Origin: an uncultured Actinomycetes bacterium
GTDB lineage: Bacteria > Actinomycetota > Actinomycetes > S36-B12
DNA: 64,000 nucleotides
Direction of reading: 5' to 3'
Assembly (NCBI GenBank): GCA_903960135.1
Contig: CAJBZP010000041.1
Coordinates: 909 to 64,908 of the forward strand
Positions 20,127 to 49,564 of the stretch are shown in pieces (position 1 is the first letter of the stretch; each line of letters begins with the position of its first letter). The notes beneath the pieces were generated by a model that had not been told where the DNA came from, did no database searches, and saw nothing but the letters and a program-made list of their open reading frames with translations. The position numbers and the translations under genes were made by a program.

Positions 20127-20138
20127 GTGCGCGCGCCC

Positions 20139-21326: not shown

Positions 21327-21394
21327 TTAGACTCCTTCAGGCGTTTAACAAGTTGCAGATCGCTGGAAACCAGTGCGCCCGAGCCTAGTGATGA

Positions 21395-21811
21395 TCAGTT
21401 GCCAGCGGTAACCGCACGGCTGTGATCTTCGACCCACTCGACGATAGACATGGTGGTGGCTCCCGGGGTAAAGATTTTGGCCACTCCGAGGGCTTCCAGC
21501 TCCACGATGTCGTCCTCAGGGATGATGCCGCCGCCAAATACGATGATGTCGTCCGCTTTGCGGGAGCGCAGGAGATCCATGACTTCGGCAAACAAGGTCA
21601 GGTGTGCCCCCGAGAGGATGGACAGGCCAATGAAGTCCACATCTTCTTGGACCGCTGCGTCAACTACCTGGGCTGGTGTTTGATGGAGGCCGGTGTAAAT
21701 GACCTCGATCCCGGCATCACGTAGTGCACGAGCGACTACCTTGGCACCTCGGTCGTGACCGTCGAGGCCCGGCTTGGCCACCAGCACCCGAATTGGACCC
21801 GCCATTACCAA
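21395..21811 (-). CDS. Stand-alone cobalamin-binding small subunit of a split acyl-CoA mutase
   Basis: 138 aa. [34 protein letters not shown] contains the DxHxxG base-off/His-on motif, followed by GLSILSGAH and VFGGGIIP. Confidence 0.85.
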
Positions 21812-21835
21812 CTCCTTTTCCGGTGTTGCCAGATC

Positions 21836-21849
21836 TCGACGACCGTCGA
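21836..21849. promoter_or_regulatory. Inverted repeat overlapping a putative paaX -35 (candidate operator)
   Basis: TCGACG-AC-CGTCGA has perfect 6-bp arms. A TATAAAT -10-like element lies at 21858..21864. The site is in the 108-bp region between the divergent B12-subunit and paaX genes. Confidence 0.4.
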
Positions 21850-21919
21850 AAGTACACTATAAATCGCTGGTCGACCGGGCCGGCACCGACCCGGTTTTAA
21901 CTAGCCTAGGAGGCGGCAG

Positions 21920-22777
21920 GTGGCTAGCCCGCGCGACCTGCGCCCGCAATCACTGATCATCTCCATCTTCGGGGCATACGGGCGCAGTATCGGTGGCTGG
22001 CTCTCAGTTAGCTCACTTATCTCCTTGCTCAACGATGTCGGGGTCGATGACCCAGCCGTGCGCAGTGCACTATCGCGGTTCAAGCGCCGCGGTATTTTGC
22101 TTTCGGAGAAACACGGCGCAGTTGCCGGTTATGCACTCAGTGAATCAACCTGGCGCACCTTTGATGTCGGTGATGCGCGGGTACTTCAGCGCCGCACCCC
22201 GCCCCAGAACGCTGGCTGGGTGCTAGCGGCTTTCTCTATCCCGGAGAGCAAGCGCGATGTGCGCTATCGCTTGCGCTCGCGGTTAGCCAAAGTCGGGTTT
22301 GCGCAGGTGGTAGGCGGCCTGTGGGTCGCGCCAAAGGCCCTGGAGGCAGACGCACTGTACGTAGTCGAAGCATTGGGCCTGCAAGAGCATGTCGACATCT
22401 TCAATGCCGAGCACATGGCATTTCGAACTACAGCAGGTGCCGTAAACCAGTGGTGGGACCTACCGGCAATCGCCCGTGAATACGAGTCTTTCACCAAAGA
22501 CTTCAAAAGCCTGCGCGTGACATATGACCGGGCGAAAAAGCCACCTACCCCGGCAAGCGCCTTCGCCGACTACACCAGGGCCCTGACGGCTTGGCGACCA
22601 CTGCCCTACAACGACCCGGGATTGCCTCGTGATTACCTGCCAAAAGTTTGGCCAGGTGACCAAGCCACGGAGCTCTTCTACGCACTCCATGACCAGCTGG
22701 CGCACCTAGCCCAGCAGCATGTGGTCGATGTGGTCGATGGCTTCAGTGACGAAAGTGCAAATTCTAAAACGTCGTAG
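21920..22777 (+). CDS. paaX: PaaX-family transcriptional repressor
   Basis: 285 aa. The N-terminal SLIISIFGAYGR...WLSVSSLISLLNDVGVDDPAVRSALSRFKRRGIL (winged-helix PaaX_N) and the C-terminal PaaX_C-like region are recognisable. It has a GTG start preceded by GGAGG (21909..21913). Its 3' end overlaps the convergent mutase gene by 14 nt. Confidence 0.8.
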   Translation: MASPRDLRPQSLIISIFGAYGRSIGGWLSVSSLISLLNDVGVDDPAVRSALSRFKRRGILLSEKHGAVAGYALSESTWRTFDVGDARVLQRRTPPQNAGWVLAAFSIPESKRDVRYRLRSRLAKVGFAQVVGGLWVAPKALEADALYVVEALGLQEHVDIFNAEHMAFRTTAGAVNQWWDLPAIAREYESFTKDFKSLRVTYDRAKKPPTPASAFADYTRALTAWRPLPYNDPGLPRDYLPKVWPGDQATELFYALHDQLAHLAQQHVVDVVDGFSDESANSKTS

Positions 22778-24266
22778 ACGGCTGGCAAGCACCATACGTT
22801 TCGCGCAGCACAGCGACAATCTCGCCGACAGTGGCATAAGCCGTAACCGCCTGCACGCACGCTGGCACCACATTCGCATTCGCAACGGCCGCCGCGCGCA
22901 CCGCCGCCAAGCCCGCCGTTACTTCAACTTGATCCCGGGCGGCTCGCACCTCCTGCAGGCTAGCGATCTGGGTGCGTTCACTTGTCGGATCTAGGGCGAA
23001 GACCTCAAATGCCACCGGATCAGTCACAAAGGCATTGACGCCGACAACGGTCTTCGCGCCAGTGTCGACCGCCCTTGCCAACTGGTAGGCACTATCGCCC
23101 AACTCGGTCTGGAAGTACCCCGACTCTATGCAGGCAAGCGCGCCACCACGCTCAGCGATATTGGACATCTCCGCCCAGATTTCAGCTTCCAACTCATCGG
23201 TGAGCTGCTCCAGCAGGTAACTGCCGCCGAGCGGATCAACCATCGAGGTGACACCTGTTTCAAAAGCCACAATCTGTTGCGTGCGAAGGGCCAAGGTTGC
23301 CGCCGTTTCGGTAGGTACGCCCAGCGCCTCATCGAAAGCGCACACATGCATGGTCTGAACCCCGCCCAAAGCCGCTGCCATCGCCTCGATGGATGTGCGA
23401 ACCACGTTATTGAGTGGCTGTTGCGCGGTGAGTGAGGATCCCGCGGTAAAGACGAAGATTCGCAGTTGCTCCGAACGTGGGTCCTGCGATTGGTAGGTGT
23501 CGCGCATCAGCTTCGCCCAAACCCGGCGCGCCGCTCTGAATTTGGCAATCTCCGGCATGAAGTCCATGTTGCTCGACAGGAAGGTGAAAAGAGATGGGGC
23601 TACCGCGTCAACACTTAGACCGCGGCGCACCGCTTCATCCAGATAGGCGCGGGAGTTAGAAAAGGTAAATGCGATCTCCTGCACTGCGCTGGAGCCCGAC
23701 TCACGAATGTGGTAGCCGCTCATGGCCAGTGATACCCAACGCGGGATGTTGTTAGCAATGTGCTCTATGACATCTACTGAAAGCTTTAGCCCGGCGGCGG
23801 CCGGGAAGATTTGCGTGCCGCGAGCGAAGTACTCCTTGAGTACATCATTTTGAATAAAGAGCCCAAATTCATTGGGATTGACGCCCCGCTTCTTGGCCAG
23901 TGCCTCGAACATCGCGGCCCAGATGTAGCCGATGGAATTGGCGGTTGTTCGAACCTGACTGATTTTCTCCAGCGGTATGCCATCCATCAACACTTCAATG
24001 TCGGCAAGGCTATCGATGGCGACTCCGACTTTGCCCACCTCGCCGCGTGCCAATGCATTGTCTGAGTCAAGGCCCATCTGCGTAGGCAGATCCAGTGCCA
24101 CGCTGAAACCGGTTAGCCCCTGATCAAGTAGCGACCGAAAGCGCGCATTTGTCTCGCGCGCAGTCCCGAAACCCGCGTACTGCCCCATGGTCCAGACCCC
24201 AGGATCAGCACTGATCCCACGGGTGTAGGGGAACTCGCCTTGCTGCTCGCGGACTTCACGGGTCAC
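22764..24266 (-). CDS. Divergent methylmalonyl-CoA-mutase-family catalytic subunit (paralog 2, no B12 domain)
   Basis: Contains [55 protein letters not shown] and VFTAGSS. The preferred start is GTG at 24266, which forms a GTGA overlap with the upstream ligase stop and has a GGAGGTG RBS. The track ORF extends to 24395. Confidence 0.8.
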   Translation of the reverse strand: MTREVREQQGEFPYTRGISADPGVWTMGQYAGFGTARETNARFRSLLDQGLTGFSVALDLPTQMGLDSDNALARGEVGKVGVAIDSLADIEVLMDGIPLEKISQVRTTANSIGYIWAAMFEALAKKRGVNPNEFGLFIQNDVLKEYFARGTQIFPAAAGLKLSVDVIEHIANNIPRWVSLAMSGYHIRESGSSAVQEIAFTFSNSRAYLDEAVRRGLSVDAVAPSLFTFLSSNMDFMPEIAKFRAARRVWAKLMRDTYQSQDPRSEQLRIFVFTAGSSLTAQQPLNNVVRTSIEAMAAALGGVQTMHVCAFDEALGVPTETAATLALRTQQIVAFETGVTSMVDPLGGSYLLEQLTDELEAEIWAEMSNIAERGGALACIESGYFQTELGDSAYQLARAVDTGAKTVVGVNAFVTDPVAFEVFALDPTSERTQIASLQEVRAARDQVEVTAGLAAVRAAAVANANVVPACVQAVTAYATVGEIVAVLRETYGACQPSTTF

Positions 24267-25822
24267 TTTTTCACCTCCGCATTCAACTGCTCGCGCAGCA
24301 CCTTCTTCGCAATCTTGCCTGTTGAGTTGAGCGGAAACTCGGCGACGATCCGTACGTCCTTCGGCTTCTTGTATGAAGCCATTCGTGACTTGCAATGTTC
24401 AAGCACCTCTTCAACGGTGACACTAGCCCCAGCGGACACGGTAATCATCGCAGTGACATGCTGACCCCAGTCGGCATCCTCGACACCGATTACTGCAACT
24501 TCGTGAACCCCGGAGACCTCGGCTATTACATCTTCAATCTCGCGCGGGTAAATGTTGTAGCCACCCGAGATGATCATGTCGCCCTTGCGGTCAACCAGGA
24601 ACAACCTCTCATCCGCATCTGATCTACCTAGATCACCGGTGTAGAGCCAGCCGTCGCGTACTGCTTTCGTCACGGTGGCATCCTGCCCGGCCTGCCCGTA
24701 ATAGCCGCGCATCACATGGTCACCTCGGGTTATTACCTCGCCGATTTCACCTGTTGGCAAGTCTTCACCTTGATCATCAACAATGCGAATTTCTACGCCA
24801 TTACATGGCAACCCCGCACTCGTCAGAATTTCCAGATCACCATCAATCCCCCGACGATGGTCAGCCGGCCCAAGCACGGTTACCGGCGGGATTGCCTCGA
24901 CCAACCCGTAATACTGCGACATCTGCGGGGTGATGCGCTCAAAGCATTGCCTAATTTGCTCAGGTGGCATCGGGGCACCCGCATAGCCCAAGATCTCCAG
25001 ATTTGCCATCCGCTCCAGTGAGATATCGGGCATCGCGAGCAGTCGAGCGACCATCGTCGGCACGAGCGCCGTGGCATTGGCACCTCTGTTTTCGAACGCA
25101 TCAACAAGTGACTCCGGGTCAAACTTGGCCTGCACGATCTGTCGGCCACCGAAAGTGAAATAGGGCAGGACGAAGAGCCCACTGGTGTGGGTTACCGGGC
25201 CAGCGTGCACCCAACAACTGCGTTCATCGGGAACTTTGCCAAGGAAGTCAGTGACGATGTTGTGCAGACTCGCCATCCGGTTTCGATGGGTCCGAATCGC
25301 ACCCTTCGGGTTGCCGGTGGTGCCACTTGAATAATTCAGTGAGACCAAGGCGTCAGGATCCACATTGAGTAAGAGCGGCTCAGGGGCCTGTGCATCAAGA
25401 AACCTCTCATAAGGGGTGGCGCCTTCCGCGCCATCGACCCCGGCGTTGATAACGATTATGTGATCGACCATCGCCCGCACACCTGCGGCGTCGTCCCAGA
25501 ACTTGGCATCAAGGATCAAGACCTTCGGGGTGCAATCGGCAGCGATTCGGACCCAATCGGTTGGGTGCAATCGGTAGTTCAGCGCCACTCGACACAATCC
25601 GGCAGTGCTGATCCCTAAATCAGTCTCGATGTAGGTGTTTTGGTTTGACTGGAGGTCAAGCACTCGGTCACCTGTCACCAAACCAAGTGCTCGAAGACCG
25701 CGAGCAAGTTGCATGATGCGCGAGCCGGTGCGGCCGTAGGTACTCGTGCCTTCCGGGCCGTCCAAGGCAATCCGGTCGCGGTACCTTCGCATTGAGCGTG
25801 CTACGAGCCGGCCGACATCCAT
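24263..25822 (-). CDS. AMP-forming acyl-CoA/aryl-CoA ligase (class I adenylate-forming enzyme)
   Basis: 519 aa with LNYSSGTTGNPKGA (AMP-binding A3), YGLVE, YTGDLG, GGYNIYPREIE and STGKIAKK motifs. Its start abuts the upstream stop with a 0-nt gap. Confidence 0.85.
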   Translation of the reverse strand: MDVGRLVARSMRRYRDRIALDGPEGTSTYGRTGSRIMQLARGLRALGLVTGDRVLDLQSNQNTYIETDLGISTAGLCRVALNYRLHPTDWVRIAADCTPKVLILDAKFWDDAAGVRAMVDHIIVINAGVDGAEGATPYERFLDAQAPEPLLLNVDPDALVSLNYSSGTTGNPKGAIRTHRNRMASLHNIVTDFLGKVPDERSCWVHAGPVTHTSGLFVLPYFTFGGRQIVQAKFDPESLVDAFENRGANATALVPTMVARLLAMPDISLERMANLEILGYAGAPMPPEQIRQCFERITPQMSQYYGLVEAIPPVTVLGPADHRRGIDGDLEILTSAGLPCNGVEIRIVDDQGEDLPTGEIGEVITRGDHVMRGYYGQAGQDATVTKAVRDGWLYTGDLGRSDADERLFLVDRKGDMIISGGYNIYPREIEDVIAEVSGVHEVAVIGVEDADWGQHVTAMITVSAGASVTVEEVLEHCKSRMASYKKPKDVRIVAEFPLNSTGKIAKKVLREQLNAEVKK

Positions 25823-27886
25823 CTAGTGCCCTCCTGCCTGCTGAAGTTGATCCCCGGTTGATGCGTCGAAGTACATTGCGTCCAAGATCCAGCACCCATC
25901 AGTTAATACCGCGATCGGATTTAGGTCGAGCTCGAAGCCGGTTGGCCATTCTCGGGTGCAATCAGCCAGGCGCACCACTGCCCGGACAAGCGCGTCAATG
26001 TCAGCTGGTGCGGCACCGCGAGCACCAGCGAGCATCGGTGCCAAGGCGGTCTCGGCGATCATCTCGCGCACGTCTATTTCATCGACGGGCAGCAGTCGCA
26101 CCGCGGCATCGGCGACGATCTCGGTGAGCACCCCACCAACGCCGACCGTCAACACCGGCCCAAGGGCGCTTGGGGTGATACCCACAATGGCCTCGACACC
26201 GCCGCGGACAAACCGTTCCGCGAGCACCTGCCCGCCAAGGTCCGCTAGCCGGGTAAATACCTCTGCTGCGGTCTCCGCGGTAACGCCAAGCACCACGCCA
26301 CCTGCATCACTTTTGTGAATTAGGCCGGGAACCACGGCCTTGAAGACCGCAACGCCATCGAACCTAGACACGGCGTCAACCGCCGCGGCCGCACTGCCAA
26401 TCAGCACCGACGAAGGAACTGGTAATCCTGCGTCCGCGAGGATCGTCTTGACCTGCTTCTCGGATGCGCCAGCCTCTGGTGCCGGCGCTAATGGGCCGGC
26501 AATTACCTCTCGGTCCCGGTGCTTTGAGGTGGCGTGCAAGGCCTGCAATGCGGCGACCGCTCGTTCAGGGGTGGGATAAACGGGGATGCCATTCGACGCA
26601 AGGACAGCAGCTCCGTCGGGGGCCAGCGAGGCGGCGCCGGTTCGCACCGCGACCACGGGCAGACCGGTGCGAGAGCGCACGGACCCGAGGGCACTTGCGA
26701 TTCGGGTGACGTCGGCCCCAACCAAGACCGCGAAGCAGGCGACGATCGCATCAACACTCAGGTCGCCCGCCAATCGGTCAACGCACTTCTCGAACAACCC
26801 CGGCTCAGCCATCACCGCCGCGGTGACATCGACCGGATTGGTCGCATTGCCGTAACTTGGAACTACCGCGGTTAGATCGGCGATGGTGTCGGCGCCAAGT
26901 TGGGCAAGTTGCATCCCACACGCCTCGATCGCATCAGCCGCCAAGATCCCACTGCCCCCCGAAGTCGTGACCACCCCGATCCGGCTTCCAGGCATCCGCG
27001 CACCCGTCGCGAACAGGGCACCGGCATCGAGTAGTGCGTCAATATCTGCGACTCGCGCGATGCCCGCCTTCTTCAGCGCCGCATCCACGACTTTGTCAGC
27101 TGACGCCAGCGCACCGGTGTGCGAGGCGGCTGCCCTCGCCCCCGCTTCACTCCTACCGGCTTTTACGACCGCGATCGGCTTCGACTCGGCAGCACCGGCT
27201 AAGGCACCGAGCTCCCCCAGTGACTCGATGTACATGAGCACCGCATCGACACTTGGGTCAGCAGCCAACTGCACCGCAACATCAACGGCAGTGACATCTG
27301 CCTCATTGCCGGTCGTGACCGCAATCCCAATTGGCACACCGCGTTCTATCCCCAAGGACAGCGCACCGAAACCAAGTGCACCCGATTGGCTAACAAGTGC
27401 GATATTGCCATCGGGTAATGGGGTTGCTGGCGAGGAGAACACCGGACTAAATGTCGCAAGCACCCGGGCTGGGCCACCGACCGCGCCGATGCAGTTGGGG
27501 CCGACCAAGCGCATCCCGTGATCACGAGCTATTCGCACCAACGCATCTTGAGCTGCGGCGCCGCTCGCACCGGTCTCCGCGAACCCTGAAGACATAACAA
27601 TGCAAACCGAGGTGCCTGCTCGGGCGCAGTCGGTCACCGCGTCTAGTACCGCGGCCGCCGGCACCATAACCAAGGCCAGATCAACCGCCCGCCCGATACT
27701 TGCCATACTCGGGAAGACCGGCAACCCCAGAACCTCGCCACCCTTTGGGTTGACCGGCGCGATGAAACCCTGGTATCCGTACTTTTGCAAGTAATCGATT
27801 GGTAGCCGGCCCATCGCACCAGGTCGTTCGGTGGCCCCGATGACCGCAATCGAGCCAGCCGACCAAAGGGCTTGCAGGCTGCTCAC
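25823..27886 (-). CDS. ADP(NDP)-forming acyl-CoA synthetase, fused alpha+beta domains (acetate--CoA ligase family)
   Basis: 687 aa. It has an N-terminal CoA-binding domain (SIAVIGATERPG), VGPNCIG, a phospho-His loop (AAASHTGALAS) and a C-terminal ATP-grasp region. Confidence 0.8.
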   Translation of the reverse strand: MSSLQALWSAGSIAVIGATERPGAMGRLPIDYLQKYGYQGFIAPVNPKGGEVLGLPVFPSMASIGRAVDLALVMVPAAAVLDAVTDCARAGTSVCIVMSSGFAETGASGAAAQDALVRIARDHGMRLVGPNCIGAVGGPARVLATFSPVFSSPATPLPDGNIALVSQSGALGFGALSLGIERGVPIGIAVTTGNEADVTAVDVAVQLAADPSVDAVLMYIESLGELGALAGAAESKPIAVVKAGRSEAGARAAASHTGALASADKVVDAALKKAGIARVADIDALLDAGALFATGARMPGSRIGVVTTSGGSGILAADAIEACGMQLAQLGADTIADLTAVVPSYGNATNPVDVTAAVMAEPGLFEKCVDRLAGDLSVDAIVACFAVLVGADVTRIASALGSVRSRTGLPVVAVRTGAASLAPDGAAVLASNGIPVYPTPERAVAALQALHATSKHRDREVIAGPLAPAPEAGASEKQVKTILADAGLPVPSSVLIGSAAAAVDAVSRFDGVAVFKAVVPGLIHKSDAGGVVLGVTAETAAEVFTRLADLGGQVLAERFVRGGVEAIVGITPSALGPVLTVGVGGVLTEIVADAAVRLLPVDEIDVREMIAETALAPMLAGARGAAPADIDALVRAVVRLADCTREWPTGFELDLNPIAVLTDGCWILDAMYFDASTGDQLQQAGGH

Positions 27887-28281
27887 GGGAGGATCGCGGT
27901 CCCTTCTATCTCGAGCAGCGCCGCATCGTCATATAACCGGGTGACACCGATCAGCGTCATCGCCGGATAATCGCGGCCCACCAGTTGGTGCCAGATTCGC
28001 CCGATTTCCTTGGCGTGATCGCGATAGTCGACCGGGTCTACCGAATAGATAGTGAGTTTCGCTAGTTGCGATGGCGTGCCGCCGGCTGCCGTAAGGGCGA
28101 CCAGCAAATTGGTGAGCACCTGCTCGAATTGCTCGACGATGGTTTCCCCAACTATCTCGCCGTCGATATTTAGTGCGGTCTGCCCCGCCAGCAGCACGAT
28201 GGTGCTGCCTTCGGCCACCACCGCATGGGTAAAACCGATCGGTGGGGCCAACTCGGGCGGGTTAATCCTTCGCACTGTCAT
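27883..28281 (-). CDS. ridA: RidA/YjgF-family enamine/imine deaminase
   Basis: The core sequence PPIGFTHAVVAEGSTIVLLAGQTAL...LVALTAAGGTP..LAKLTIY...PAMTLIGVTRL...LLEIEGTAIL is typical of the family. The preferred start is MTVRR at 28281, with alternatives at 28287 and 28320. The stop overlaps the next gene's start by 4 nt. Confidence 0.75.
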   Translation of the reverse strand: MTVRRINPPELAPPIGFTHAVVAEGSTIVLLAGQTALNIDGEIVGETIVEQFEQVLTNLLVALTAAGGTPSQLAKLTIYSVDPVDYRDHAKEIGRIWHQLVGRDYPAMTLIGVTRLYDDAALLEIEGTAILP

Positions 28282-28449
28282 TTCCATACCCTTCGGCCAT
28301 CGCTGGATAGACTCAACCACTGCCCTTGGACAGCTAGTTGCGGGGCTGGCTGAAAAGGAGTGCGCGTTGCCGAATCCATTTGGCCTTTCCCGCCCGCTAG
28401 CCTACCCGGGCATAGTGCGCATCCTTGCCGATCGACAATAATACGACAC

Positions 28450-29625
28450 ATGAGCGCCCCACGTCCCGTACTTGCGGCAGCCCGCCGGACCCCATTTGGC
28501 CGGTACCGGGGCCAATTGTCGACGATCCGCCCCGATGATCTCCTCGGGTTCACCATCGCCGATCTCATCGCGACCACCCCACAACTAGACCCTGCCCATA
28601 TCGATGACGTAATCATGGGCGACGCTAACGGTGCCGGCGAGGACAACCGCAATGTCGCCCGAATGGCCGCCCTGCTCGCTGGGCTCCCGCTGACGGTGCC
28701 CGGGGTCACCGTAAATCGCCTGTGCGGCTCCGGCGCCGAGGCCATCGTCCAAGCCGCCCGGGCAGTACGCGCCGGTGATCTGGATTTAGTGCTGGCCGGC
28801 GGTGTCGAAAGCATGAGCCGGGCGCCCTATGTGCTCCCGAAATCAGATAAGTCACTTGATCCGGCCATGCGGTTGGAGCAAACAACCGTGGGCTGGCGGA
28901 TGATTAACCCGGCTTTCCCCGCGCATTGGACCGATAGCCTCGGGGCTTGCGCTGAGCGCAGTGCCAACGTGCGCGGCATCGGCCGCAGTGAGCAAGATGA
29001 CTGGGCCGTTCGATCACATGAACTCGCCAGTGCCGCTTGGTCAAATGGGTTACATGATGGCTTTGCGTTTCCCATTGCCGGGCTGGCAATCGATGAATCC
29101 ATTCGCACCGATTGCACCTCCGAGTCCCTAGCGCGCCTGAAACCAGCCTTTACCGCAGATGGCACGGTGACCGCCGGTAACTCATCACCTATTAATGACG
29201 GCGCCGTAGCCACCTTAATTACGTCAGAAACAAAGGCACTCGAACTCGGGTTGGCTCCGATCGGCACAATATTGGGATCCGCAGTAGTTGCCACCGAGCC
29301 CGATGACTTTGCGAGCGCTCCCGTCCCGGCAATGCGCAAGCTGCTCCAGCGAACCGGGTATTCATTTTCCGATATCGATCTCTTCGAGATCAATGAGGCT
29401 TTCGCCGCGATGGTGCTCACCGTGCTTCGAGATGCCCCGGAAATCGAGGTGGCGAAAGTCAATCCAAATGGGGGCGCCATCGCAATCGGGCACCCCGTTG
29501 GGGCTTCGGCAGCCAGGGTCGTTGTCGACACGTGCCGTGAGTTACAGCGTCGTGGTGGTGGCTTGGGCATTGCAACGGCATGTATCGGTGTCGGACTCGG
29601 CATCGCCGTACTAGTGGAGGTTTGA
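28450..29625 (+). CDS. Acetyl-CoA C-acyltransferase (degradative thiolase)
   Basis: Has VNRLCGSGAEAI (active-site Cys), NPNGGAIAIGHPVGASAARV (His) and ATACIGVGLG (second Cys). The start was set to the ATG at 28450 (MSAPRPVLAAARRTPFG). Confidence 0.9.
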   Translation: MSAPRPVLAAARRTPFGRYRGQLSTIRPDDLLGFTIADLIATTPQLDPAHIDDVIMGDANGAGEDNRNVARMAALLAGLPLTVPGVTVNRLCGSGAEAIVQAARAVRAGDLDLVLAGGVESMSRAPYVLPKSDKSLDPAMRLEQTTVGWRMINPAFPAHWTDSLGACAERSANVRGIGRSEQDDWAVRSHELASAAWSNGLHDGFAFPIAGLAIDESIRTDCTSESLARLKPAFTADGTVTAGNSSPINDGAVATLITSETKALELGLAPIGTILGSAVVATEPDDFASAPVPAMRKLLQRTGYSFSDIDLFEINEAFAAMVLTVLRDAPEIEVAKVNPNGGAIAIGHPVGASAARVVVDTCRELQRRGGGLGIATACIGVGLGIAVLVEV

Positions 29626-30422
29626 TGATTCAGCTGGACGAGTTCACCGATGTGAATTACGAAGTCATCGACGGCGTTGCGGTGATCACGATAAACCGGC
29701 CAGAGCGCTACAACGCACTTCGCGGCCGCACCGTTGATGAGCTCATCTATGCATTTCGCTACGCATGGGTCGACAAAACCGTTGGCTCAATAGTCTTGAC
29801 CGGTGCCGGCGCCAAAGCGTTTTGCAGTGGCGGTGATCAAAAGGAGCGCGCAGCAACCGGCGGCTACGGCGAGACCGAGATGGGCATGTTCGAGATAGAT
29901 CGGCTGCACCGGCTGATCCGCGAGGTACCCAAGCCCGTTATCGCTGCCGTTAATGGGTTTGCGATCGGCGGCGGCCATGTGCTCCATGTCCTATGTGACG
30001 TCTCACTGGCCGCGAGCACCGCGAAGTTTGGCCAGGTGGGCCCGCGGGTCGGTAGTTTCGATGCCGGCTTCGGTACCGCCTACCTAGCAAGGGTGGTCGG
30101 GGAAAAACGCGCCCGCGAGATCTGGTTCTTCTGCGATCAATATGACGCTGCCACCGCCGAACGCTGGGGCCTGGTGAACCGCGTCGTCGAACCAGATGAG
30201 CTGATGCCGCTCGCACTTGCTTGGGGCCGCAAGGTACTGGACTTATCGCCGACGGCGATCAAGACCCTCAAGCACAGCTTCAATGCCGATACCGACCACC
30301 TGGTTGGCCTGCAATCACTGGCCTTTGATGTGCTGGATCTCTTCGTCGAAACCGATGAAGCCAAGGAGGGCGGCGCCGCCTTCAACGAGAAGCGGCCGCC
30401 GGATTTCACGCCCTACCGCTGA
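29625..30422 (+). CDS. MenB/BadI-subfamily crotonase (1,4-dihydroxy-2-naphthoyl-CoA synthase-like / 2-ketocyclohexanecarboxyl-CoA hydrolase-like)
   Basis: Colinear with E. coli MenB as I remember it: AFCSGGDQKER...GGY, PKPVIAAVNGFAIGGGHVLHVLCD, FGQVGPRVGSFDAGFG, AREIWFFCDQYDA and AFNEKRPPDF. The ATG overlaps the thiolase stop as TGATG, and GGAGG lies upstream. Confidence 0.8.
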   Translation: MIQLDEFTDVNYEVIDGVAVITINRPERYNALRGRTVDELIYAFRYAWVDKTVGSIVLTGAGAKAFCSGGDQKERAATGGYGETEMGMFEIDRLHRLIREVPKPVIAAVNGFAIGGGHVLHVLCDVSLAASTAKFGQVGPRVGSFDAGFGTAYLARVVGEKRAREIWFFCDQYDAATAERWGLVNRVVEPDELMPLALAWGRKVLDLSPTAIKTLKHSFNADTDHLVGLQSLAFDVLDLFVETDEAKEGGAAFNEKRPPDFTPYR

Positions 30423-30445
30423 AATCAGGGTCATCTCCTCGGATT

Positions 30446-30480
30446 TCTACCATTATAGAATTTGCTTCTACCGTGGTAGA
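30446..30480. promoter_or_regulatory. Two palindromic sites (candidate VapBC autoregulatory operators) with an embedded -10-like TATAGA
   Basis: TCTACCATTATAGA (30446..30459, imperfect) and TCTACCGTGGTAGA (30467..30480, perfect 6-2-6 palindrome) end 9 nt before the vapB ATG. Confidence 0.5.
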
Positions 30481-30488
30481 TTGGGCCT

Positions 30489-30752
30489 ATGTCCCTGAAC
30501 ATCAAGAACCCCGAAACCCATAACTTGGCTCGGGAGCTGGCCGCGATCTTGAGCACCACCGTGACGAGTGCAGTTACGGTGGCTTTGCAGGAGTCGATTG
30601 CCGCCCACGGCAGCGGGAAGCATCCGCAGGATCGATTAGAACGGTTGCGCGCCATCTCCCAGCGAGCGGCAGCAAGGGTGCGGGCCACGCCTGGGCCTGA
30701 CCTCCAGCTGGTCGCCGACGATCTCTACGACGCTAACGGACTACCGATTTGA
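30489..30752 (+). CDS. vapB: Type II antitoxin, VapB family (Rv0623/VapB30-like)
   Basis: 87 aa. MSLNIKNPETHNLARELAAILSTTVTSAVTVAL is typical of the FitA/Rv0623-like antitoxin family. It overlaps the downstream PIN gene by 4 nt. Confidence 0.7.
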   Translation: MSLNIKNPETHNLARELAAILSTTVTSAVTVALQESIAAHGSGKHPQDRLERLRAISQRAAARVRATPGPDLQLVADDLYDANGLPI

Positions 30753-31165
30753 TTATTGACACTTCGGCTCTAGTCGGTGCATTACTGGGCGAGCAGCACG
30801 CCGAAGAACTCCTTCAAATAATTGCCGATGCGCATCAACCGCGGATGTCTGCTGCCAGCTACCTAGAATCAGGGGTGGTCTTGGATTCGCGGCGAGACCC
30901 GGTGCTTTCGCGATCACTCGACGACTTCCTTGATATCGCGGAAGTCGAAATCGAACCAGTAACAGCCGAGCAGGCGCGAATTGCCCGCGAAGCGTATCGA
31001 GATTTTGGTAAAGGAAGCGGACACCCGGCACAACTCAACTTCGGCGACTGCTTTGCTTACGCATTGGCAAAGTCCACCGATGAACCATTGCTCTTCGTAG
31101 GTTTAGATTTCAGTCACACCGACGTCACTGCGGCACAGGTCAGCAGGCCCAAGAACGGCGGCTGA
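30749..31165 (+). CDS. vapC: Type II toxin, VapC family PIN-domain ribonuclease
   Basis: 138 aa. It has (M)IIDTSALV with the first acidic PIN residue at position 4, later acidic residues (E, FGDCFAYALA, D near the C-terminus), and a TTG start in a TTGA overlap with vapB. Confidence 0.8.
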   Translation: MIIDTSALVGALLGEQHAEELLQIIADAHQPRMSAASYLESGVVLDSRRDPVLSRSLDDFLDIAEVEIEPVTAEQARIAREAYRDFGKGSGHPAQLNFGDCFAYALAKSTDEPLLFVGLDFSHTDVTAAQVSRPKNGG

Positions 31166-31178
31166 CTCGCCCCTTAAG

Positions 31179-33539
31179 TTAGTTGACCAACCACCGCCGC
31201 GGCCGCTCGGCGACTTCCTCCTTGGCCACCAAGGTAAGGCGTGGCTTGGGGTCTTCGGTCCGGCCCGCCGGCGGCTTGCGACTTCCTGCCGCATATGGCT
31301 TTGGCCACGGCATCCGGTACCCCTGATCCGCGGCCGCGTGCAAAGTCCACGCCGGGTCATAAAGGTGCGGGCGGCCAAGTGCACAGAGGTCGGCCCGACC
31401 AGCCGCGATGATGGTGTTGATGTCATCCCAACTACTGATTGACCCGACAGCCATGGTCGCAACTTTCGAGATATTTCGAATTCGGTCAGCAAACGGGGTT
31501 TGGTAGGTACGGCCATATGCCGGTCGCGCATTGGCTGCAGTCTGCCCGGTCGACACATCGATGATGTCCGCGCCATGCGCTGCGAAGGCGCGCGCGATCT
31601 CAATTGAGTCCTCGCCGCTCAAGCCATCATCGACCCAGTCGGTAGCCGATACCCGCACACTCATCGGGCGATCGGCGGGCCAAGCCGCCCGCACCGCATC
31701 AAAGACTTCGAGTGGGAAGCGCAACCGGTTGGCGACATCACCGCCGTAGTCATCAGTTCGCTGATTACTGATTGGGGTCAAGAAGCTGGAAAGCAGGTAG
31801 CCGTGGGCCGCATGTAGTTCGAGCAGGTCGAAGCCGGCTTCGGCCGCACGCAAGGTTGCCGATACGAACTCGGCTTTAACCGCATCCATGTCGGCTCGGG
31901 TCATTTCCCGCGGCACCTGGTTTATCGCCTGGTATGGGATTGGCGATGGCGCGATCAGCGGCCAGTTGCCGTCAGCCAGGGGTTCGTCGATGCCATCCCA
32001 CATGAGTTTGGTCGAGCCTTTGCGTCCCGCGTGCCCAAGTTGCACCCCGATCTTCGATGGGGTGGTATGAACGAATTCAACAATCTTGGCCCAAGCCTGG
32101 GTTTGCTCGTCGGTCCACAGACCGCCGCAGCCGGGTGTGATGCGACCGTCGGCCGAGGTGCAAACCATCTCGGTCATCACCAGGCCAGCGCCACCGAGTG
32201 CGCGAGCTCCAAGGTGCACCAGATGGAAGTCACCGGGCACCCCGGCTTCTGATGAGTACATGTCCATCGCCGAGACAACAACCCGATTTGGCAGTTCTAG
32301 GCCGCGCATTCGAAATGGCATGAACATCGGCGGCCTTGCAGTAGTACCGGCCGGCGCCCGGCCCTCGTCAATTTGGTTCTGGAGTAACCAAGAGTCCACC
32401 CGCTCCATGAACTCAGGATCGCGCTCGCGCAGGTTGCCGTAGGTAACTCGACGTGACCGGGTCAAGAGATTGAATGCGAATTGAATCGGCTCCTGATCCA
32501 CGTACTGGGTTATCTCCTCGAACCACTCAAGGGCGGCCTGCGCTGATCGCTGGGTGCTTTCGACCACCGGCCTGCGCTCCCCGTCATAGGCCGCCAGTGC
32601 CTTAGCTACGTCCTGATGTTCGAGTAGGCAGGCGGCTAAGGAAATCGACCCTTCCATCGCCAATTTGGTGCCTGAGCCGATTGCGAAATGGGCGGTATGC
32701 GCAGCATCGCCCAAGATCACGAGGTTCTTGTGGGCCCAGGTCGCATTGCGGAAGGCACGGAAGGTTACCCACCGACTGTTATTGCGCAGCAGCGGTTGGC
32801 CACCTAGGTAATCCTTGAAGATCTCTGCCACCTTGGCAATTGATGGCTCATCACTTTCGCCAATTGGCAGATCCGCAGCCGCGTCAGCCAGCTCCTCGAA
32901 ACCGGCCCGGCGCCAGATATCTTCGTGCATCTCAACGATGAAGGTGCTGCTGTGGTCATCCATCGGGTAGGCATGCGCTTGCATCGTCCCCCACGGGGTG
33001 TCAACAATGAAAAACTTGAACGCTTCATATACAACCGGGGTGCCCAGCCAGATGAACTTGCATTTGCGGAAGTCAACCGTGGTGCCGAACTCGTCTTTGA
33101 AAGTCTCCCGAGTTGCGCTATTGATGCCATCGCTCGCTAGCACTAGGTCATAGTCGGCCATCAACTCATCGATCGGTGGCGCCGGCGTGTTGAAGAGCAC
33201 ATTAACGCCGTTAGCGATCGCACGACGCTGCAAAATCGCGAGCAGGTCGGTGCGACTCATCGCCGCGAACCCGTGCCCGCCACTTGTTAGGACTTCATCA
33301 CGGTAGTGAATATCGATGTCATCCCAGTAGGCGAAGGCCTTGGACATCTCCTCGTAGATGGACGGGTCTGAGATTCGGATACCGGAGAGCGTCTGGTCAC
33401 TGAAAACAACGCCGAACCCAAAAGTATCAAGTGGTGCGTTGCGCTCCCAGACCGTGATGTCGTACTCGGGTTCGAACTGTTTGACCAAGCTTGCGAAATA
33501 GAGCCCACCCGGGCCACCGCCAACGACTGCGATCTTCAT
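31179..33539 (-). CDS. Bifunctional FAD-dependent aryl-CoA monooxygenase / Old-Yellow-Enzyme-type reductase (2-aminobenzoyl-CoA monooxygenase/reductase- or salicylyl-CoA 5-hydroxylase-like)
   Basis: 786 aa. The N-terminal half has [16 protein letters not shown] (GxGxxG) and [18 protein letters not shown] (flavin monooxygenase DG/GD motifs). The C-terminal half has [28 protein letters not shown] and GRPHLYDP, typical of OYE/NADH:flavin oxidoreductases. Confidence 0.8.
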
Positions 33540-33585
33540 TTATCTCCTTAGGCGTTGGCGGTCCTTCGCCAGATGTTGCGGATTA

Positions 33586-33614
33586 TTGACTGTCGCCAAA
33601 TTAGCGGTATAAAT
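33586..33614 (+). promoter_or_regulatory. Putative promoter of the SDR / RAM-domain genes
   Basis: TTGACT (33586..33591), a 16/17-nt spacer, then TATAAAT (33608..33614), in the 114-bp divergent region shared with the monooxygenase/reductase gene. Confidence 0.5.
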
Positions 33615-33653
33615 AGTCCCACGCAAGCCCAATTAAACAACCTGCAGAAAGAT

Positions 33654-34460
33654 ATGCCCATGGCAACTAATCCCCCGGCCGGCCAGGTAGCCGCACGGTT
33701 CACCGACCAAGTCGCCATCGTGACCGGCGGGGCCGGCGGTCTCGGCCGCCAGATCTGCCTGAGCATCGGCGCCGAAGGGGGCAAGGTCGCGGTCTTCGAT
33801 ACCAATGCAGAGGCCATCGACCAAACGGTTGCGCTCCTTAATGCCGGCGGCACCGAGGCGGTTGGGCACCTGGTCGATGTCCGTGACCACGGCGCAGTGA
33901 CCTCCGCGGTCGCCGCAGTAGCCACCTACTTTGGGCGCATCGACATCCTGATCGCTGCAGCCGGCGGCAGCTTGGCCACGCCACGGGACCTCGCAGATAT
34001 TGCACCCGCCGACCTGGACCTAGTTATCGACGTAAACGTAAAAGGCACCTTCAACTGCGCACAAGCCGTCGTCCCGCACCTGCTGCGAGCCGGTGGCGGT
34101 GCGATCGTCACGTTCTCCTCAATCGGTGGCCGTTCGACCAGCCCGGTGACCGGGGTCCCGTATGCCGCAGCGAAAGCCGCGATCTTAGGTCTAACCCGCC
34201 GACTGGCCCGCGAGGTCGGCCCCGGCGGGATCCGGGTTAATGCGGTTGCCCCCGGCCTATTTCTCACCGGCCGCCTACAAGGCATGTTCGATGACATGAC
34301 CGAGGCCGACCGCTCCGAAGTGCTAGACGGTATCCCCCTTGGACGGATGCCGCAGTTACAAGAGTGCGTGGATCCGGTGCTCTTCCTCGCCTCCGGTCAA
34401 TCCTCATACATCACCGGAGCCGTCCTTGACGTCAACGGCGGCCGATTCATGGCCGGTTGA
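33654..34460 (+). CDS. Short-chain dehydrogenase/reductase (3-oxoacyl / 3-hydroxyacyl-CoA type)
   Basis: Has VAIVTGGAGGLG (TGxxxGxG), NAAG-like AAAGG, the catalytic YAAAKAA (YxxxK) and PGLFLT. The start is ATG 33654 (or 33660); the track ORF 5' extension is rejected. Confidence 0.85.
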   Translation: MPMATNPPAGQVAARFTDQVAIVTGGAGGLGRQICLSIGAEGGKVAVFDTNAEAIDQTVALLNAGGTEAVGHLVDVRDHGAVTSAVAAVATYFGRIDILIAAAGGSLATPRDLADIAPADLDLVIDVNVKGTFNCAQAVVPHLLRAGGGAIVTFSSIGGRSTSPVTGVPYAAAKAAILGLTRRLAREVGPGGIRVNAVAPGLFLTGRLQGMFDDMTEADRSEVLDGIPLGRMPQLQECVDPVLFLASGQSSYITGAVLDVNGGRFMAG

Positions 34461-34768
34461 TCGAGCCCACCTACACTGCATCCATGATCACCGCCCTGTG
34501 CTTCATCCAAGTAGTCCCCGAGCACGTCAACTCCGCGGGCGAGGCCATCGCCAAGATTCCAGGGGTCACCGCGGCCTATTCGGTAACCGGAAAAATTGAC
34601 CTAGTGGCTCTCATCGAGGTACGCACCCACGACGACATCGCCAAGACGGTGACCGATGGCATCTCCAAAGTCAAGGGTGTGCAATCAACAAAGACCCACG
34701 TCTCGTTCCGCACCTTCAATAGTGCTGATCTAGAAGCGGGCTTCGCCCTCGGCGCCGAAGAGGGCTAA
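34457..34768 (+). CDS. Stand-alone Lrp/AsnC ligand-binding (RAM) domain protein
   Basis: ALCFIQV...AIAKIPGVTAAYSVTGKIDLVALIEVRTHDDIAKTV...KGVQSTKTHVSF matches the RAM-domain pattern, and there is no HTH domain. The start is either TTG 34457 (overlapping the SDR stop) or ATG 34484. Confidence 0.6.
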   Translation: MIEPTYTASMITALCFIQVVPEHVNSAGEAIAKIPGVTAAYSVTGKIDLVALIEVRTHDDIAKTVTDGISKVKGVQSTKTHVSFRTFNSADLEAGFALGAEEG

Positions 34769-35913: not shown

Positions 35914-36014
35914 GCCCGAATTGTGCCTGCCTGAGCCGGTCCCGGCACCCCCACCCCGGTGACTTCCCCTGGGGATTTGCGCAAACTTGCGCCCCACTGG
36001 TAGACACCTACCCC

Positions 36015-36557
36015 ATGCGTGTGTTTCGGGCCGGACTTTTCGCCCTGCTGCTGTATATCGCGGCCACACTTTTGCCAACCCTCGCGCACGCTGACCCGCT
36101 GCCGCGCGAGCGAGTACCAGAGATCTCCCTGCCGGTCTCGCCGGTGAAACTTTCGGCTAAGTTCGGCGAGAGTGGTTCCTACTGGGGTGGTGTCCCGCAC
36201 TCAGGTTTGGATTTTGACGGCAACACCGGGGATCCCATCTATGCGGTCGCCGCCGGGGTGGTGCGCGAGGTAGCAACGCGTGGCAGTTACGGCCGCACCA
36301 TCACGATCGCCCACGGTGATGGCGTGGCTTCGATGTATGCGCACCTGGCAAGCACCGAGGTAAAGGTCGGCCAGCAAGTTAAGTCGGGTGAGCGGATCGC
36401 CCAAATGGGTGCCACCGGGAATGTCTCCGGATCCCACCTGCACCTTGAGATTCAACTACGTGGGGCACCGACTGATCCTTATGGCTTCCTGTTCGCCGCA
36501 AACCCAGGCAGCGTCAGCGAGCCGCCGGGCTGGGCTTGTCGGATCTACGGATGCTGA
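36015..36557 (+). CDS. M23-family (LytM-type) peptidoglycan metalloendopeptidase, secreted
   Basis: Signal peptide MRVFRAGLFALLLYIAATLLPTLAHA, then HSGLDFDG (HxxxD), ITIAHGDG, SMYAHL and ATGNVSGSHLHLEI (HxH). Confidence 0.8.
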   Translation: MRVFRAGLFALLLYIAATLLPTLAHADPLPRERVPEISLPVSPVKLSAKFGESGSYWGGVPHSGLDFDGNTGDPIYAVAAGVVREVATRGSYGRTITIAHGDGVASMYAHLASTEVKVGQQVKSGERIAQMGATGNVSGSHLHLEIQLRGAPTDPYGFLFAANPGSVSEPPGWACRIYGC

Positions 36558-44006: not shown

Positions 44007-44107
44007 CGCCTAAACCCTATCCGGGGGTGAATTCTGCAGATATCGCGCTAAGTCTTGAGAATTTCAGTACCGTGACGTCCATCACATTACCCGCGGGAAG
44101 GAATCCT

Positions 44108-49541: not shown

Positions 49542-49564
49542 CCATGCTCCCCAATCCGTGGGCG

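Follow-up and report, generated by a model that had tools for sequence, protein, structure and literature searches.

An actinobacterial gene cluster with a PaaX-type regulator as a candidate route for aerobic anthranilate catabolism with a new B12 mutase clade

We examined a 64-kb window of DNA from an uncultured member of the Actinomycetes (contig CAJBZP010000041.1 of assembly GCA_903960135.1, positions 909 to 64,908), in which a stretch at 21395-34768 joins a PaaX-type regulator to genes for enzymes that act on coenzyme A (CoA) thioesters. Comparison with related loci suggests that this cluster would form a PaaX-type regulon for the aerobic catabolism of anthranilate via CoA thioesters, a dearomatising hybrid pathway with an undescribed lower module, and we hold this reading with somewhat better than even confidence. 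The upper pathway is known, whereas the lower module, and above all its clade of B12-dependent mutases, is new. More tentatively, the cluster might supply the missing lower half of the aerobic anthraniloyl-CoA pathway, in which a reversed MenB reaction would give 4-oxopimelyl-CoA, a mutase of the new clade would rearrange it, and a thiolase would release propionyl-CoA and succinyl-CoA. What becomes of 2-amino-5-oxocyclohex-1-ene-1-carbonyl-CoA has been a question ever since its producing enzyme was described in the 1990s, and the cluster offers a small, conserved group of candidate genes for the remainder of the anthraniloyl-CoA route.

The open reading frames (ORFs) of the window were listed and searched against the Pfam and NCBIfam profiles, and the gene junctions were read directly from the sequence. 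The profile searches support each family assignment in the stretch. An initial annotation, made from the DNA letters without database searches, had given the genes, their coordinates and their junctions; each of these genes was found, and each family is backed by the searches. The pathway-type genes that it listed are present, but they number 11 rather than the 12 claimed.

The upper pathway and its regulator

The upper pathway centers on a 786-aa fusion of a flavin adenine dinucleotide (FAD)-dependent monooxygenase with a flavin mononucleotide (FMN) reductase of the old yellow enzyme (OYE) type (31179..33539, minus strand; PF01494 and PF00724). Residues 1-768 match the NCBIfam model NF006101 at 1182.4 bits, above its cut-off of 1078, which upholds the earlier placement of the protein in the family of 2-aminobenzoyl-CoA monooxygenase/reductase (ACMR) and SdgC. 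The protein is 63% identical to the enzyme encoded on plasmid pAL1 of Arthrobacter sp. Rue61a, and homologues of 60-93% identity, annotated by JGI as anthraniloyl-CoA monooxygenase, are plentiful in freshwater Actinomycetota metagenomes. A scan of species-representative genomes with the fusion protein gave 598 confirmed matches, from which 80 loci were kept; gene neighborhoods were counted by tblastn with a reference panel in the 53 of these loci that span at least 20 kb. The fusion gene has a Rid-family gene nearby in 50 of the 53, a PaaX-family regulator in 47 and a benzoate/anthranilate-type CoA ligase in 41. Judged by these neighborhoods, the fusion enzyme, the Rid protein and the PaaX regulator are a near-universal trio.

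The classical ligase family of the related loci is 59% identical to the pAL1 ligase, for which anthranilate-CoA ligase activity has been measured (PMC3534580). In the pAL1 host, anthraniloyl-CoA and a C7H8O4-CoA, the latter read as cyclohexanedione-carboxyl-CoA, accumulate only on anthranilate (PMC3534580). Because the fusion enzyme, Rid protein and regulator of the window match their pAL1 counterparts, and in view of the ligase data, the upper half is by comparison of a known kind, the aerobic 2-aminobenzoyl-CoA (anthranilate) hybrid pathway of Azoarcus evansii and Arthrobacter Rue61a, and its substrate is most likely anthranilate, a breakdown product of tryptophan. The initial annotation had allowed for an amino- or hydroxy-aromatic or an alicyclic acid; the amino-aromatic part of that proposal stands, narrowed to anthranilate, and the wider range does not. 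Nor can the combination of genes be called undescribed, as it had been, since a ligase, the fusion enzyme, a YjgF/Rid protein and beta-oxidation-type genes make up the published anthranilate CoA cluster (Arthrobacter pAL1), to the Arthrobacter version of which a PaaX-type regulator also belongs. The clusters of Azoarcus evansii, in the 2001 paper of Schuhle et al., are likewise said to join a ligase, the fusion enzyme, a "translation inhibitor" (YjgF/Rid) and beta-oxidation genes.

The Rid-family (YjgF/RidA superfamily) protein of the window, 134 aa long (27883..28287, minus strand; PF01042), is 47% identical to the pAL1 Rid protein and departs from archetypal RidA, matching TIGR00004 at 39.9 bits against a cut-off of 106.25. 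An alignment to structure 5YU2 places Met at the position of the carboxylate-binding Arg105. A CoA-bound substrate would fit such a protein, because the arginine that binds the alpha-carboxylate is gone, and we infer that it may hydrolyse the enamine or imine that the fusion enzyme yields as a CoA-bound 2-amino-enoyl product.

The regulator (285 aa; 21920..22777, plus strand) has the three-domain architecture of PaaX-type proteins (PaaX, PaaX_M and PaaX_C), shares 39-40% identity with each of the two PaaX-type regulators encoded on Arthrobacter pAL1 and, like them, is associated with palindromes in catabolic promoters and in that of its own gene. It differs from PaaX, the phenylacetate repressor, in that its match to TIGR02277 reaches 154.4 bits, below the cut-off of 264.55, and therefore it is not the phenylacetate PaaX equivalog; moreover, paa genes were not found among the window ORFs scanned against Pfam. 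The regulator would be a repressor released by anthraniloyl-CoA, the ligand to which MeqR2 reportedly responds according to Niewerth et al.

All three divergent promoters of the window hold palindromic, operator-like sites, in drifted form. The perfect palindrome TCGACGACCGTCGA at 21836..21849, in the region between the PaaX gene and the divergent B12 subunit gene and sucCD, is the sole zero-mismatch match to CGACGNNCGTCG in the window, and its core, GACGACCGTC, is also the core of a pAL1 palindrome, TGACGACCGTCA, that itself lies upstream of a PaaX gene. The palindrome TTGCCGATCGACAA at 28425..28438, in the divergent promoter of the thiolase gene and the Rid operon, lies within a block that is conserved nearly base for base in five related contigs (L081, L082, L084, L085 and L086; GTGTCGTATTATTGCCGATCGRCAAGGA). 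Together with the imperfect palindrome TTGACTGTCGCCAA (other strand TTGGCGACAGTCAA) at 33586..33599, in the promoter between the fusion gene and its divergent neighbor, it forms the only two zero-mismatch sites for TTGNCGANNGNCAA in the window. Promoters equivalent to the thiolase/Rid one carry TTGACGGTCGTCA or TGACGAGCGTCA in loci L051, L007 and L026, and promoters equivalent to the one next to the fusion gene carry TTGTCGATAGTCAC (L081), TTTCCGATAGTCAA (L082), TTGACGACCGTC (L096) and TTGACGCCCGTC (L051). Related elements stand upstream of the PaaX gene in L086 and of the B12 subunit gene in L084 and L085, in which the regulator gene is found elsewhere.

On pAL1, the palindrome TGACGNNCGTCA occurs at six sites in 25 kb, where 1.2 would be expected; all but one of them are intergenic, and these include promoters of catabolic and regulator genes. 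This palindrome agrees with what we take to be the operator of MeqR2, and it is present, mostly as TTGACGNNCGTC(AA), in the equivalent divergent promoters of L007, L026, L051 and L096. Relative to these pAL1-type operators, the sites of the freshwater lineage of the window have drifted from TTGACGNNCGTCAA to TTGCCGATCGRCAA. The simpler idea of one operator, CGACGNNCGTCG, shared by all three promoters was rejected, since only one exact site exists and the drifted sites needed cross-locus alignment. Three regions had earlier been singled out for tests of PaaX binding; because the three palindromes fall within them, each does contain one specific candidate site at the level of sequence.

A conserved cluster with an alternative lower module

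Across the 80 loci, the genes that accompany the fusion gene fall into four lower sets. An acyl-CoA dehydrogenase (ACAD) with an ordinary enoyl-CoA hydratase (ECH) is found in about 24 loci, and a thioesterase with a small cupin and a hydrolase of the fumarylacetoacetate hydrolase (FAH) family, the pAL1 type, in 19. A MenB-like crotonase marks a third set of five loci, including Geodermatophilus telluris and Pseudonocardia eucalypti. In the fourth, that of the window, the MenB-like crotonase is joined by a thiolase, a second short-chain dehydrogenase/reductase (SDR), an ADP-forming acyl-CoA synthetase, an AMP-forming acyl-CoA ligase and a B12-dependent mutase. The window cluster resembles the anthranilate pathway encoded by the abm clusters of Azoarcus evansii and by the pAL1 and chromosomal clusters of Arthrobacter sp. 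Rue61a in its fusion flavoenzyme family, its Rid/YjgF protein and its CoA-thioester logic, and the Arthrobacter cluster also in its PaaX-type regulator and the same kind of palindromic operator. It differs in having no benzoate/anthranilate-type CoA ligase and in carrying a MenB-like crotonase, a thiolase, two CoA synthetases and a B12 mutase instead, with neither the ACAD and hydratase set, which is reportedly the Azoarcus type (Schuhle and colleagues, 2001), nor the thioesterase, cupin and FAH set of pAL1.

The gene order and operon structure of the window recur in freshwater contigs (L081-L086), in a soil metagenome-assembled genome (L051) and in the cultured Ornithinimicrobium faecis (L096). 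The synthetase, ligase and mutase genes form a triad, to which the Rid gene is joined by translational coupling in the window and in L081-L086. In L051 the fusion gene is directly followed by the same triad, and in O. faecis fusion gene and triad are again contiguous, with one direction of transcription. The cluster did not come together by chance, since other genomes and contigs show the same genes in synteny, and the co-occurrence across related genomes that the initial annotation had named as a check was found in freshwater, soil and cultured Actinomycetota. The crotonase, thiolase, SDR, fusion enzyme, both synthetases and mutase travel together in two actinobacterial lineages, and the earlier view of one conserved, co-regulated CoA-thioester catabolic unit is supported.

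Two observations concern the surroundings of the fusion gene in other loci. In Arthrobacter-type clusters, represented by pAL1 (L087; 9517-10905 and 8606-9511), it is paired with genes for an acyl-CoA thioesterase, a small cupin and an FAH hydrolase, which suggests a ring-cleavage branch through a re-aromatised 5-hydroxyanthranilate rather than hydrolytic ring opening. In freshwater relatives (L081, 1-9078 and 12403-16400; L002; L003) it is surrounded by extra genes that are absent from the window. These encode a cyclase-family (PF04199) amidohydrolase, two CrtI/amine-oxidase-like flavoproteins, indolepyruvate-oxidoreductase-like subunits, a bicupin, a nitrilase-family hydrolase, an FAH-family hydrolase and a luciferase-like monooxygenase with a flavin reductase, and together they suggest a wider island devoted to the breakdown of tryptophan or indole.

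The crotonase of the window (265 aa; 29625..30422, plus strand; PF00378) resembles both MenB and BadI without belonging to either. It falls below the cut-offs of the MenB models NF005637 (345.6 against 380), TIGR01929 (318.2 against 342.7) and NF006186 (258.6 against 378) and of the BadI model TIGR03210 (304.7 against 467.6). It is 56% identical to Geobacillus MenB (2IEX), whereas the match to M. tuberculosis MenB is only 196 bits, so that it would be a MenB of the short Bacillales kind inside an actinobacterium. The crotonase fold, the oxyanion-hole region, the GSFD motif (Ser161/Asp163) and Tyr97 are kept, but the NAFRP and LNV motifs are altered and Tyr258 (E. coli numbering), which we take to be a catalytic residue of MenB, is lost: this position is Val in the window and Val, Ala or Thr in nine cluster-linked homologues, and Tyr in both MenB structures. 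Neither men nor bad genes were found near the crotonase gene. A genuine MenB was rejected on these grounds (curated cut-offs missed, Tyr258 lost, a weak match to actinobacterial MenB and men genes absent nearby), and the enzyme is neither the housekeeping MenB nor the BadI equivalog, in keeping with the initial annotation. Its orthologues in Geodermatophilus telluris and Pseudonocardia eucalypti (65-69% identity) adjoin only the genes for a further SDR (SDR2), Rid, the ligase and the fusion enzyme, without a mutase. This arrangement suggests that the crotonase acts after the fusion enzyme, and we infer that it may be a ring hydrolase that runs the Dieckmann condensation of MenB in reverse.

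The thiolase, encoded immediately upstream of the crotonase (391 aa; 28450..29625, plus strand; Thiolase_N and Thiolase_C), passes TIGR01930 (411.7 bits against 240.55), is nearest to the models of 3-oxoadipyl-CoA thiolase PcaF/PaaJ, though below the cut-off of the pcaF model TIGR02430 (422 bits against 597), and has counterparts of 64-71% identity in L002, L051 and L096. The SDR of the window (SDR1, 268 aa; 33654..34460, plus strand; adh_short domains) shares 72%, 58% and 59% identity with its positional counterparts in L081, L051 and L096, respectively, but only 27-31% with SDR2, which precedes the Rid gene in most other clusters. SDR1 is a candidate for a keto/hydroxy step, either while the ring is intact or once the chain has been opened.

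Two CoA synthetases lie between the Rid and mutase genes. The ADP-forming (NDP-forming) enzyme (687 aa; 25823..27886, minus strand) is a fused alpha-beta protein of five domains, with matches to CoA_binding, Succ_CoA_lig, Ligase_CoA_2 and ATP-grasp_5 and with the SHTG phosphohistidine motif, and it is 49-54% identical to proteins encoded at the same operon position in L051, L096 and L097. A class V enzyme dependent on pyridoxal phosphate (PLP) is encoded beside the triad in L097; its reading as a kynureninase was rejected, at 84 bits against a cut-off of 246. The AMP-forming enzyme (24263..25822, minus strand; PF00501 and PF13193) is always encoded between the ADP-forming synthetase and the mutase in the loci compared. 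All its NCBIfam matches fall below cut-off, its nearest structures are fatty-acyl/feruloyl-CoA synthetases, FadD8 and MatB, and it is 28% identical to the verified anthranilate-CoA ligase of pAL1. L051 carries the whole gene set of the window plus a classical ligase that is 59% identical to that of pAL1. Given the low identity and the presence of both ligases in L051, the AMP-forming enzyme is probably not the aryl-CoA ligase that it had been taken for; it appears to be FadD/MenE/MatB-like, with a 4-oxopimelate-type acid or anthranilate as candidate substrates.

A new clade of B12-dependent mutases

The large subunit of the cluster mutase (22764..24266, minus strand; PF01642, 569 bits) starts at a GTG at 24266, which gives a protein of about 500 aa, in keeping with homologues of 496-511 aa. 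Its best solved relative is HcmA (4R3U, 425 bits), and it is 39-49% identical to every reference mutase. With the mutases MCM (methylmalonyl-CoA), HCM (2-hydroxyisobutyryl-CoA), ICM (isobutyryl-CoA), ECM (ethylmalonyl-CoA) and IaaGH it shares split large and small subunits, a TIM-barrel large subunit and the DxHxxG motif. The substrate- and radical-handling residues Tyr89, Gln197, Arg207, Tyr243 and His244 are kept as in MCM. The clade to which it belongs is nevertheless set apart by the signature G87 Y89 L117 R164 F195 R207 H244 S/T283 F285 F328 F330 V365 C/S366, where the MCMs of P. shermanii and human have R, Y, F, S, T, R, H, R, S, H, Q, T and N. Ten positions are thus replaced in the window copy (R87G, F117L, S164R, T195F, R283S, S285F, H328F, Q330F, T365V and N366C), with clade-wide variants F117L/M, T195F/L, R283S/T and N366C/S. 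Positions 87, 164, 195, 328, 330, 365 and 366 are invariant in all aligned MCM, HCM and ICM-like references and position 117 is Phe in all of them, whereas 283 and 285 vary in some; split-type and paralogous MCMs deviate from the MCM signature only at 283 or 285.

All 120 freshwater homologues carry exactly this signature and the 120 soil homologues almost the same one, whereas among the best 150 matches from 1.84 billion representative proteins only two full-length sequences share it. In a plasmid collection the mutase had only distant matches, all below 50% identity. Public annotations call the homologues methylmalonyl-CoA mutase. Those best 150 matches also include many further clades (P0248, P0250, P0251, P0254, P0263, P0294 and others) that keep Tyr89 and Arg207 and differ from both MCM and the window clade at 87, 164, 195, 328 and 330, which points to what may be much uncharacterised mutase diversity.

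The initial annotation of the cluster missed a second large subunit, outside the coordinates it gave, at 1253-2833 (minus strand), directly downstream of sdhA/sdhB (2844-5518). This copy has the complete canonical MCM signature and is 58% identical to a Brevibacillus mutase whose gene adjoins those of methylmalonyl-CoA epimerase and carboxyltransferase. The cluster mutase is 48% identical to it and scores 549 bits with TIGR00641, which it passes, against 770 for the paralogue; with NF006944, a model that also expects a fused B12 domain, it reaches 466.5, below the cut-off of 876. No MeaB, epimerase or carboxylase genes were found near the cluster mutase. A housekeeping MCM was rejected on account of the canonical paralogue and the distinct clade signature, and on this comparison the cluster mutase is a specialised paralogue.

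In contrast to the reference mutases, members of the clade are always linked to CoA-activating enzymes and a thiolase. Its distant members in L091 and L094, of 54-55% identity and with the same signature, have no aromatic-pathway neighbors: the gene order is ECH, mutase, family III CoA-transferase and thiolase, with AtuA also present, in L091 (9181-16966), and mutase, B12 subunit, AMP ligase and thiolase, with three SDRs and a beta-keto-acid cleavage enzyme (BKACE) nearby, in L094 (134-9795). The recurrence of a CoA-activating enzyme, mutase and thiolase suggests that the mutase creates the thiolase substrate. The reverse order, with the mutase acting after the thiolase, had been proposed earlier; an action before the thiolase is more likely, given the company that these distant members keep.

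The B12-binding small subunit (21395..21811, minus strand; PF02310, 95.7 bits; TIGR00640, 159.5 bits) has the DxHxxG motif and is 73% identical to the one that adjoins the clade mutase P0242, and it is probably the partner of the cluster mutase. It is the only B12 small subunit found in the window, with none next to the 1253-2833 copy. The order B12 small subunit, sucC, sucD is kept in the window (19257-21811), in L084 (16170-18654) and in L085 (14833-17296), and it persists in the latter two loci with different genes between the B12 subunit and the mutase. Because it stays attached to sucCD in relatives, the small subunit may also be shared with the canonical MCM large subunit, and because this order and the palindrome-like element upstream of it are conserved, the subunit may be co-transcribed with succinyl-CoA synthetase. 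A second sign of cobalamin use in the window is a MerR-family regulator with B12-binding domains (CarH/LitR-like) at 53761-54744 on the minus strand.

Proposed pathway and alternative explanations

We propose that anthranilate would be activated to anthraniloyl-CoA by one of the two synthetases, and that the fusion enzyme would hydroxylate C5 and reduce the ring to 2-amino-5-oxocyclohex-1-ene-1-carbonyl-CoA. The Arg-less Rid protein would hydrolyse the enamine or imine to 2,5-dioxocyclohexane-1-carbonyl-CoA and ammonia, and the MenB-like crotonase would open the ring to 4-oxopimelyl-CoA by the reverse of the MenB reaction. The former compound would be an analogue of the keto form of 1,4-dihydroxy-2-naphthoyl-CoA (DHNA-CoA) without the fused benzene ring, and the latter the matching analogue of o-succinylbenzoyl-CoA (OSB-CoA), a likeness to the substrate and product of MenB, while the proposed direction is the same as that of BadI. 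The B12 mutase would then move the thioester carbon from C2 to C3 to give 2-methyl-3-oxoadipyl-CoA, a move on a 4-oxoacyl-CoA that would be the same shift as that from succinyl-CoA to methylmalonyl-CoA; alternatively, the mutase might take the 4-hydroxy form, with SDR1 acting afterward. Finally, the PcaF-like thiolase would split the product into propionyl-CoA and succinyl-CoA, next to sucCD, and the second CoA synthetase could re-activate the free C7 acid or recover ATP. The order of activation, hydroxylation and reduction, Rid-assisted deamination and retro-Dieckmann ring opening was also that of the initial annotation and is favored by the comparative evidence.

The closest analogy to the lower steps is the 2-hydroxyisobutyrate pathway on pELW1-1 of Mycobacterium sp. 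ELW1, in which the acid is activated, a B12 mutase brings an oxygen function to the beta position, and oxidation and thiolysis follow, encoded by genes for a ligase, mutase, dehydrogenase and thiolase. The HCM of that pathway has Ile90, Asp117 and Gln208 where the window mutase has Tyr, Ala and Arg, the window has no MeaB, and the substrate here would be a C7 dicarboxyl-CoA derived from an aromatic ring. We found no described mutase reaction from a 4-oxoacyl-CoA to a 2-methyl-3-oxoacyl-CoA in the literature, and literature searches on 4-oxopimelyl-CoA, a levulinyl-CoA mutase and the roles of His328 and Gln330 of MCM gave nothing useful.

Several findings weigh against the proposed pathway. A tblastn search of the window for a classical anthranilate-CoA ligase returned only the FadD-like ligase, at 28% identity, so that activation would fall on a non-classical ligase or synthetase. 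An SDR2 homologue was not found in a search confined to 21395-34768, SDR1 has no necessary role in the simplest scheme, and two CoA synthetases exceed its needs. The retained Tyr89 and Arg207 bind a carboxylate in MCM, and a substituted succinyl-CoA would fit them at least as well as a 4-oxoacyl-CoA. In O. faecis, neither a crotonase nor a Rid gene was found within 10 kb of the operon. Phytoactinopolyspora limicola has the triad with no fusion gene within 10 kb, and the triad can therefore work outside an anthranilate pathway.

This last observation invites a mosaic reading, in which the fusion enzyme, Rid protein, crotonase, SDR and PaaX regulator would serve anthranilate, and the triad and thiolase would be an independent module for an unrelated acid from the environment (a 4-oxo or branched dicarboxylate, for instance) that shares only the location and perhaps the regulation. 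The isolated triad of P. limicola beside an ABC transporter and a class V PLP enzyme is consistent with such a mosaic, as are the members of the mutase clade in clusters without a fusion enzyme and the use of other lower modules at most fusion loci (ACAD and ECH in about 24 of the 53, thioesterase and cupin in 19). We nevertheless regard it as rather unlikely, because fusion gene and triad follow each other directly and in the same direction in L051 and O. faecis, Rid is translationally coupled to the triad in the window and L081-L086, the thiolase is coupled to the crotonase, and operator-like palindromes precede both units. Less likely again is that the mutase module acts upstream of the ring, converting an aryl-succinyl-CoA via (2-aminobenzyl)malonyl-CoA to 2-aminobenzoyl-CoA, as in the anaerobic indoleacetate pathway of Aromatoleum. 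One synthetase would make (2-aminophenyl)succinyl-CoA from oxindole-acetate, and the crotonase, SDR and thiolase would shorten the chain, so that tryptophan or auxin would be degraded aerobically by way of anthraniloyl-CoA. IaaGH, a documented phenylsuccinyl/benzylmalonyl-CoA mutase on the way to 2-aminobenzoyl-CoA, is a precedent; the retained Tyr89 and Arg207 and the four new Phe residues of the barrel would suit an aryl group; and the freshwater relatives carry the indolepyruvate-oxidoreductase-like, nitrilase-family, cyclase-family amidohydrolase, luciferase-like monooxygenase and flavin reductase genes mentioned above. However, the window cluster, L051 and L096 have neither an acyl-CoA dehydrogenase for the IaaF step nor an oxindole-forming or ring-hydrolysing enzyme, the crotonase is MenB-like rather than a hydratase and has orthologues in clusters with only an anthranilate ligase, the fusion enzyme, SDR2 and Rid, and the clade members of L091 and L094 have no aromatic-pathway neighbors. 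An upstream role for the module would also leave no enzyme of the cluster to open the ring made by the fusion enzyme.

A different substrate, salicylate, would follow if the fusion protein were a salicylyl-CoA 5-hydroxylase of the SdgC type that forms gentisyl-CoA, as in Streptomyces sp. WA46. NF006101, which the protein passes, bears the name of this activity, and Streptomyces homologues (about 60-61% identity) are as close to the window protein as those of Arthrobacter. The Rid deaminase-type protein that accompanies the fusion gene in 50 of 53 loci, the match of regulator and operators to the anthranilate cluster on pAL1, and an intact OYE half with a MenB-like hydrolase, which point to a non-aromatic product, all make salicylate improbable. 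Homologues of the thioesterase, cupin and FAH were not found by tblastn of the window or in the Pfam scans, which covered part of its ORFs, nor were a gentisate dioxygenase and an SdgA/SdgB-type activation pair found in the window. It is very improbable, finally, that the cluster mutase is the organism's own MCM and turns methylmalonyl-CoA from propionyl-CoA into succinyl-CoA. Retention of Tyr89, Gln197, Arg207, Tyr243 and His244, a B12 subunit gene directly upstream of sucCD and the public annotation speak for that role, but the canonical MCM with its full signature at 1253-2833 beside sdhAB would already fill it. The cluster copy, by contrast, differs from MCM at ten positions, seven of them invariant in the references, is less than 50% identical to any mutase of the plasmid collection and has no MeaB, epimerase or carboxylase genes nearby.

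If the route to propionyl-CoA and succinyl-CoA is as we propose, the mutase would catalyze a new type of reaction and offer a general answer to the "gamma-keto acid" problem, and the clade members of L091 and L094 may serve other 4-oxo acids, such as levulinate. A B12 enzyme may then explain the final splitting of the opened ring, and a mutase clade with a remodelled active site matters both for B12 enzymology and for the design of pathways with 4-oxo acids. The route is directly testable, because versions of the cluster occur in the cultured O. faecis (CP099489.1, 3.25-3.27 Mb), Geodermatophilus telluris DSM 45421 and Pseudonocardia eucalypti JCM 18303. Since the cluster is common in freshwater Actinomycetota metagenomes, the availability of B12 would be tied to the turnover of tryptophan-derived aromatics in lakes.

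Gene junctions and genomic setting

The minus-strand operon runs from Rid through the ADP-forming synthetase and the AMP-forming ligase to the mutase. Read from the sequence, its junctions are a 4-nt GTGA overlap, a TAG directly followed by ATG (0 nt) and a second GTGA of 4 nt, in which the GTG start of the mutase overlaps the stop of the ligase. The Rid gene starts at 28287 or 28281, and the thiolase, crotonase and SDR genes at 28450, 29625 and 33654, respectively; thiolase stop and crotonase start share one nucleotide in TGATG. The last gene of the cluster encodes a stand-alone RAM (AsnC/Lrp ligand-binding) domain protein without a DNA-binding domain (103 aa; 34457..34768, plus strand; PF01037, 57 bits). 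Its start overlaps the SDR1 stop as TTGA, indicating translational coupling, and a RAM gene also adjoins the fusion gene in L001 (87%), L003 (53%) and L006 (49%).

Between the crotonase and fusion genes lies a pair that the initial annotation, otherwise accurate in the genes it named, overlooked. This vapBC pair (30489-31165) consists of a gene for a Rv0623-like vapB antitoxin (30489-30752, plus strand; PF07704, 72 bits) and a gene for a vapC PIN toxin (30749-31165, plus strand; PF01850, 61.7 bits) and is a toxin-antitoxin insertion outside the pathway. Of the other loci compared, only the closest relative, L001, has the PIN gene (79%).

Sequence composition gave no sign of recent transfer, the G+C content being uniform at about 59-60%. 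The cluster is flanked, as had been stated, by sucCD (19257-21326) and a glycerate kinase gene (34765-36078), and the flanking sucCD, DUF6350/PerM and PcrA genes are in ordinary actinobacterial synteny. Scans of the window found no riboswitch or other Rfam family and no tRNA, and matches to promoter and terminator consensus sequences were at chance level. Beyond the glycerate kinase gene, a 648-aa ORF without a Pfam match adjoins pcrA (38880-40826, minus strand). Three plus-strand genes at 44027-47810 encode a molybdenum hydroxylase of the xanthine dehydrogenase/CO dehydrogenase family, with 2Fe-2S, molybdenum cofactor (MoCo)-binding and FAD subunits, and on the opposite strand at 47841-51127 follow a glucose-methanol-choline (GMC) oxidoreductase and an aldehyde dehydrogenase.

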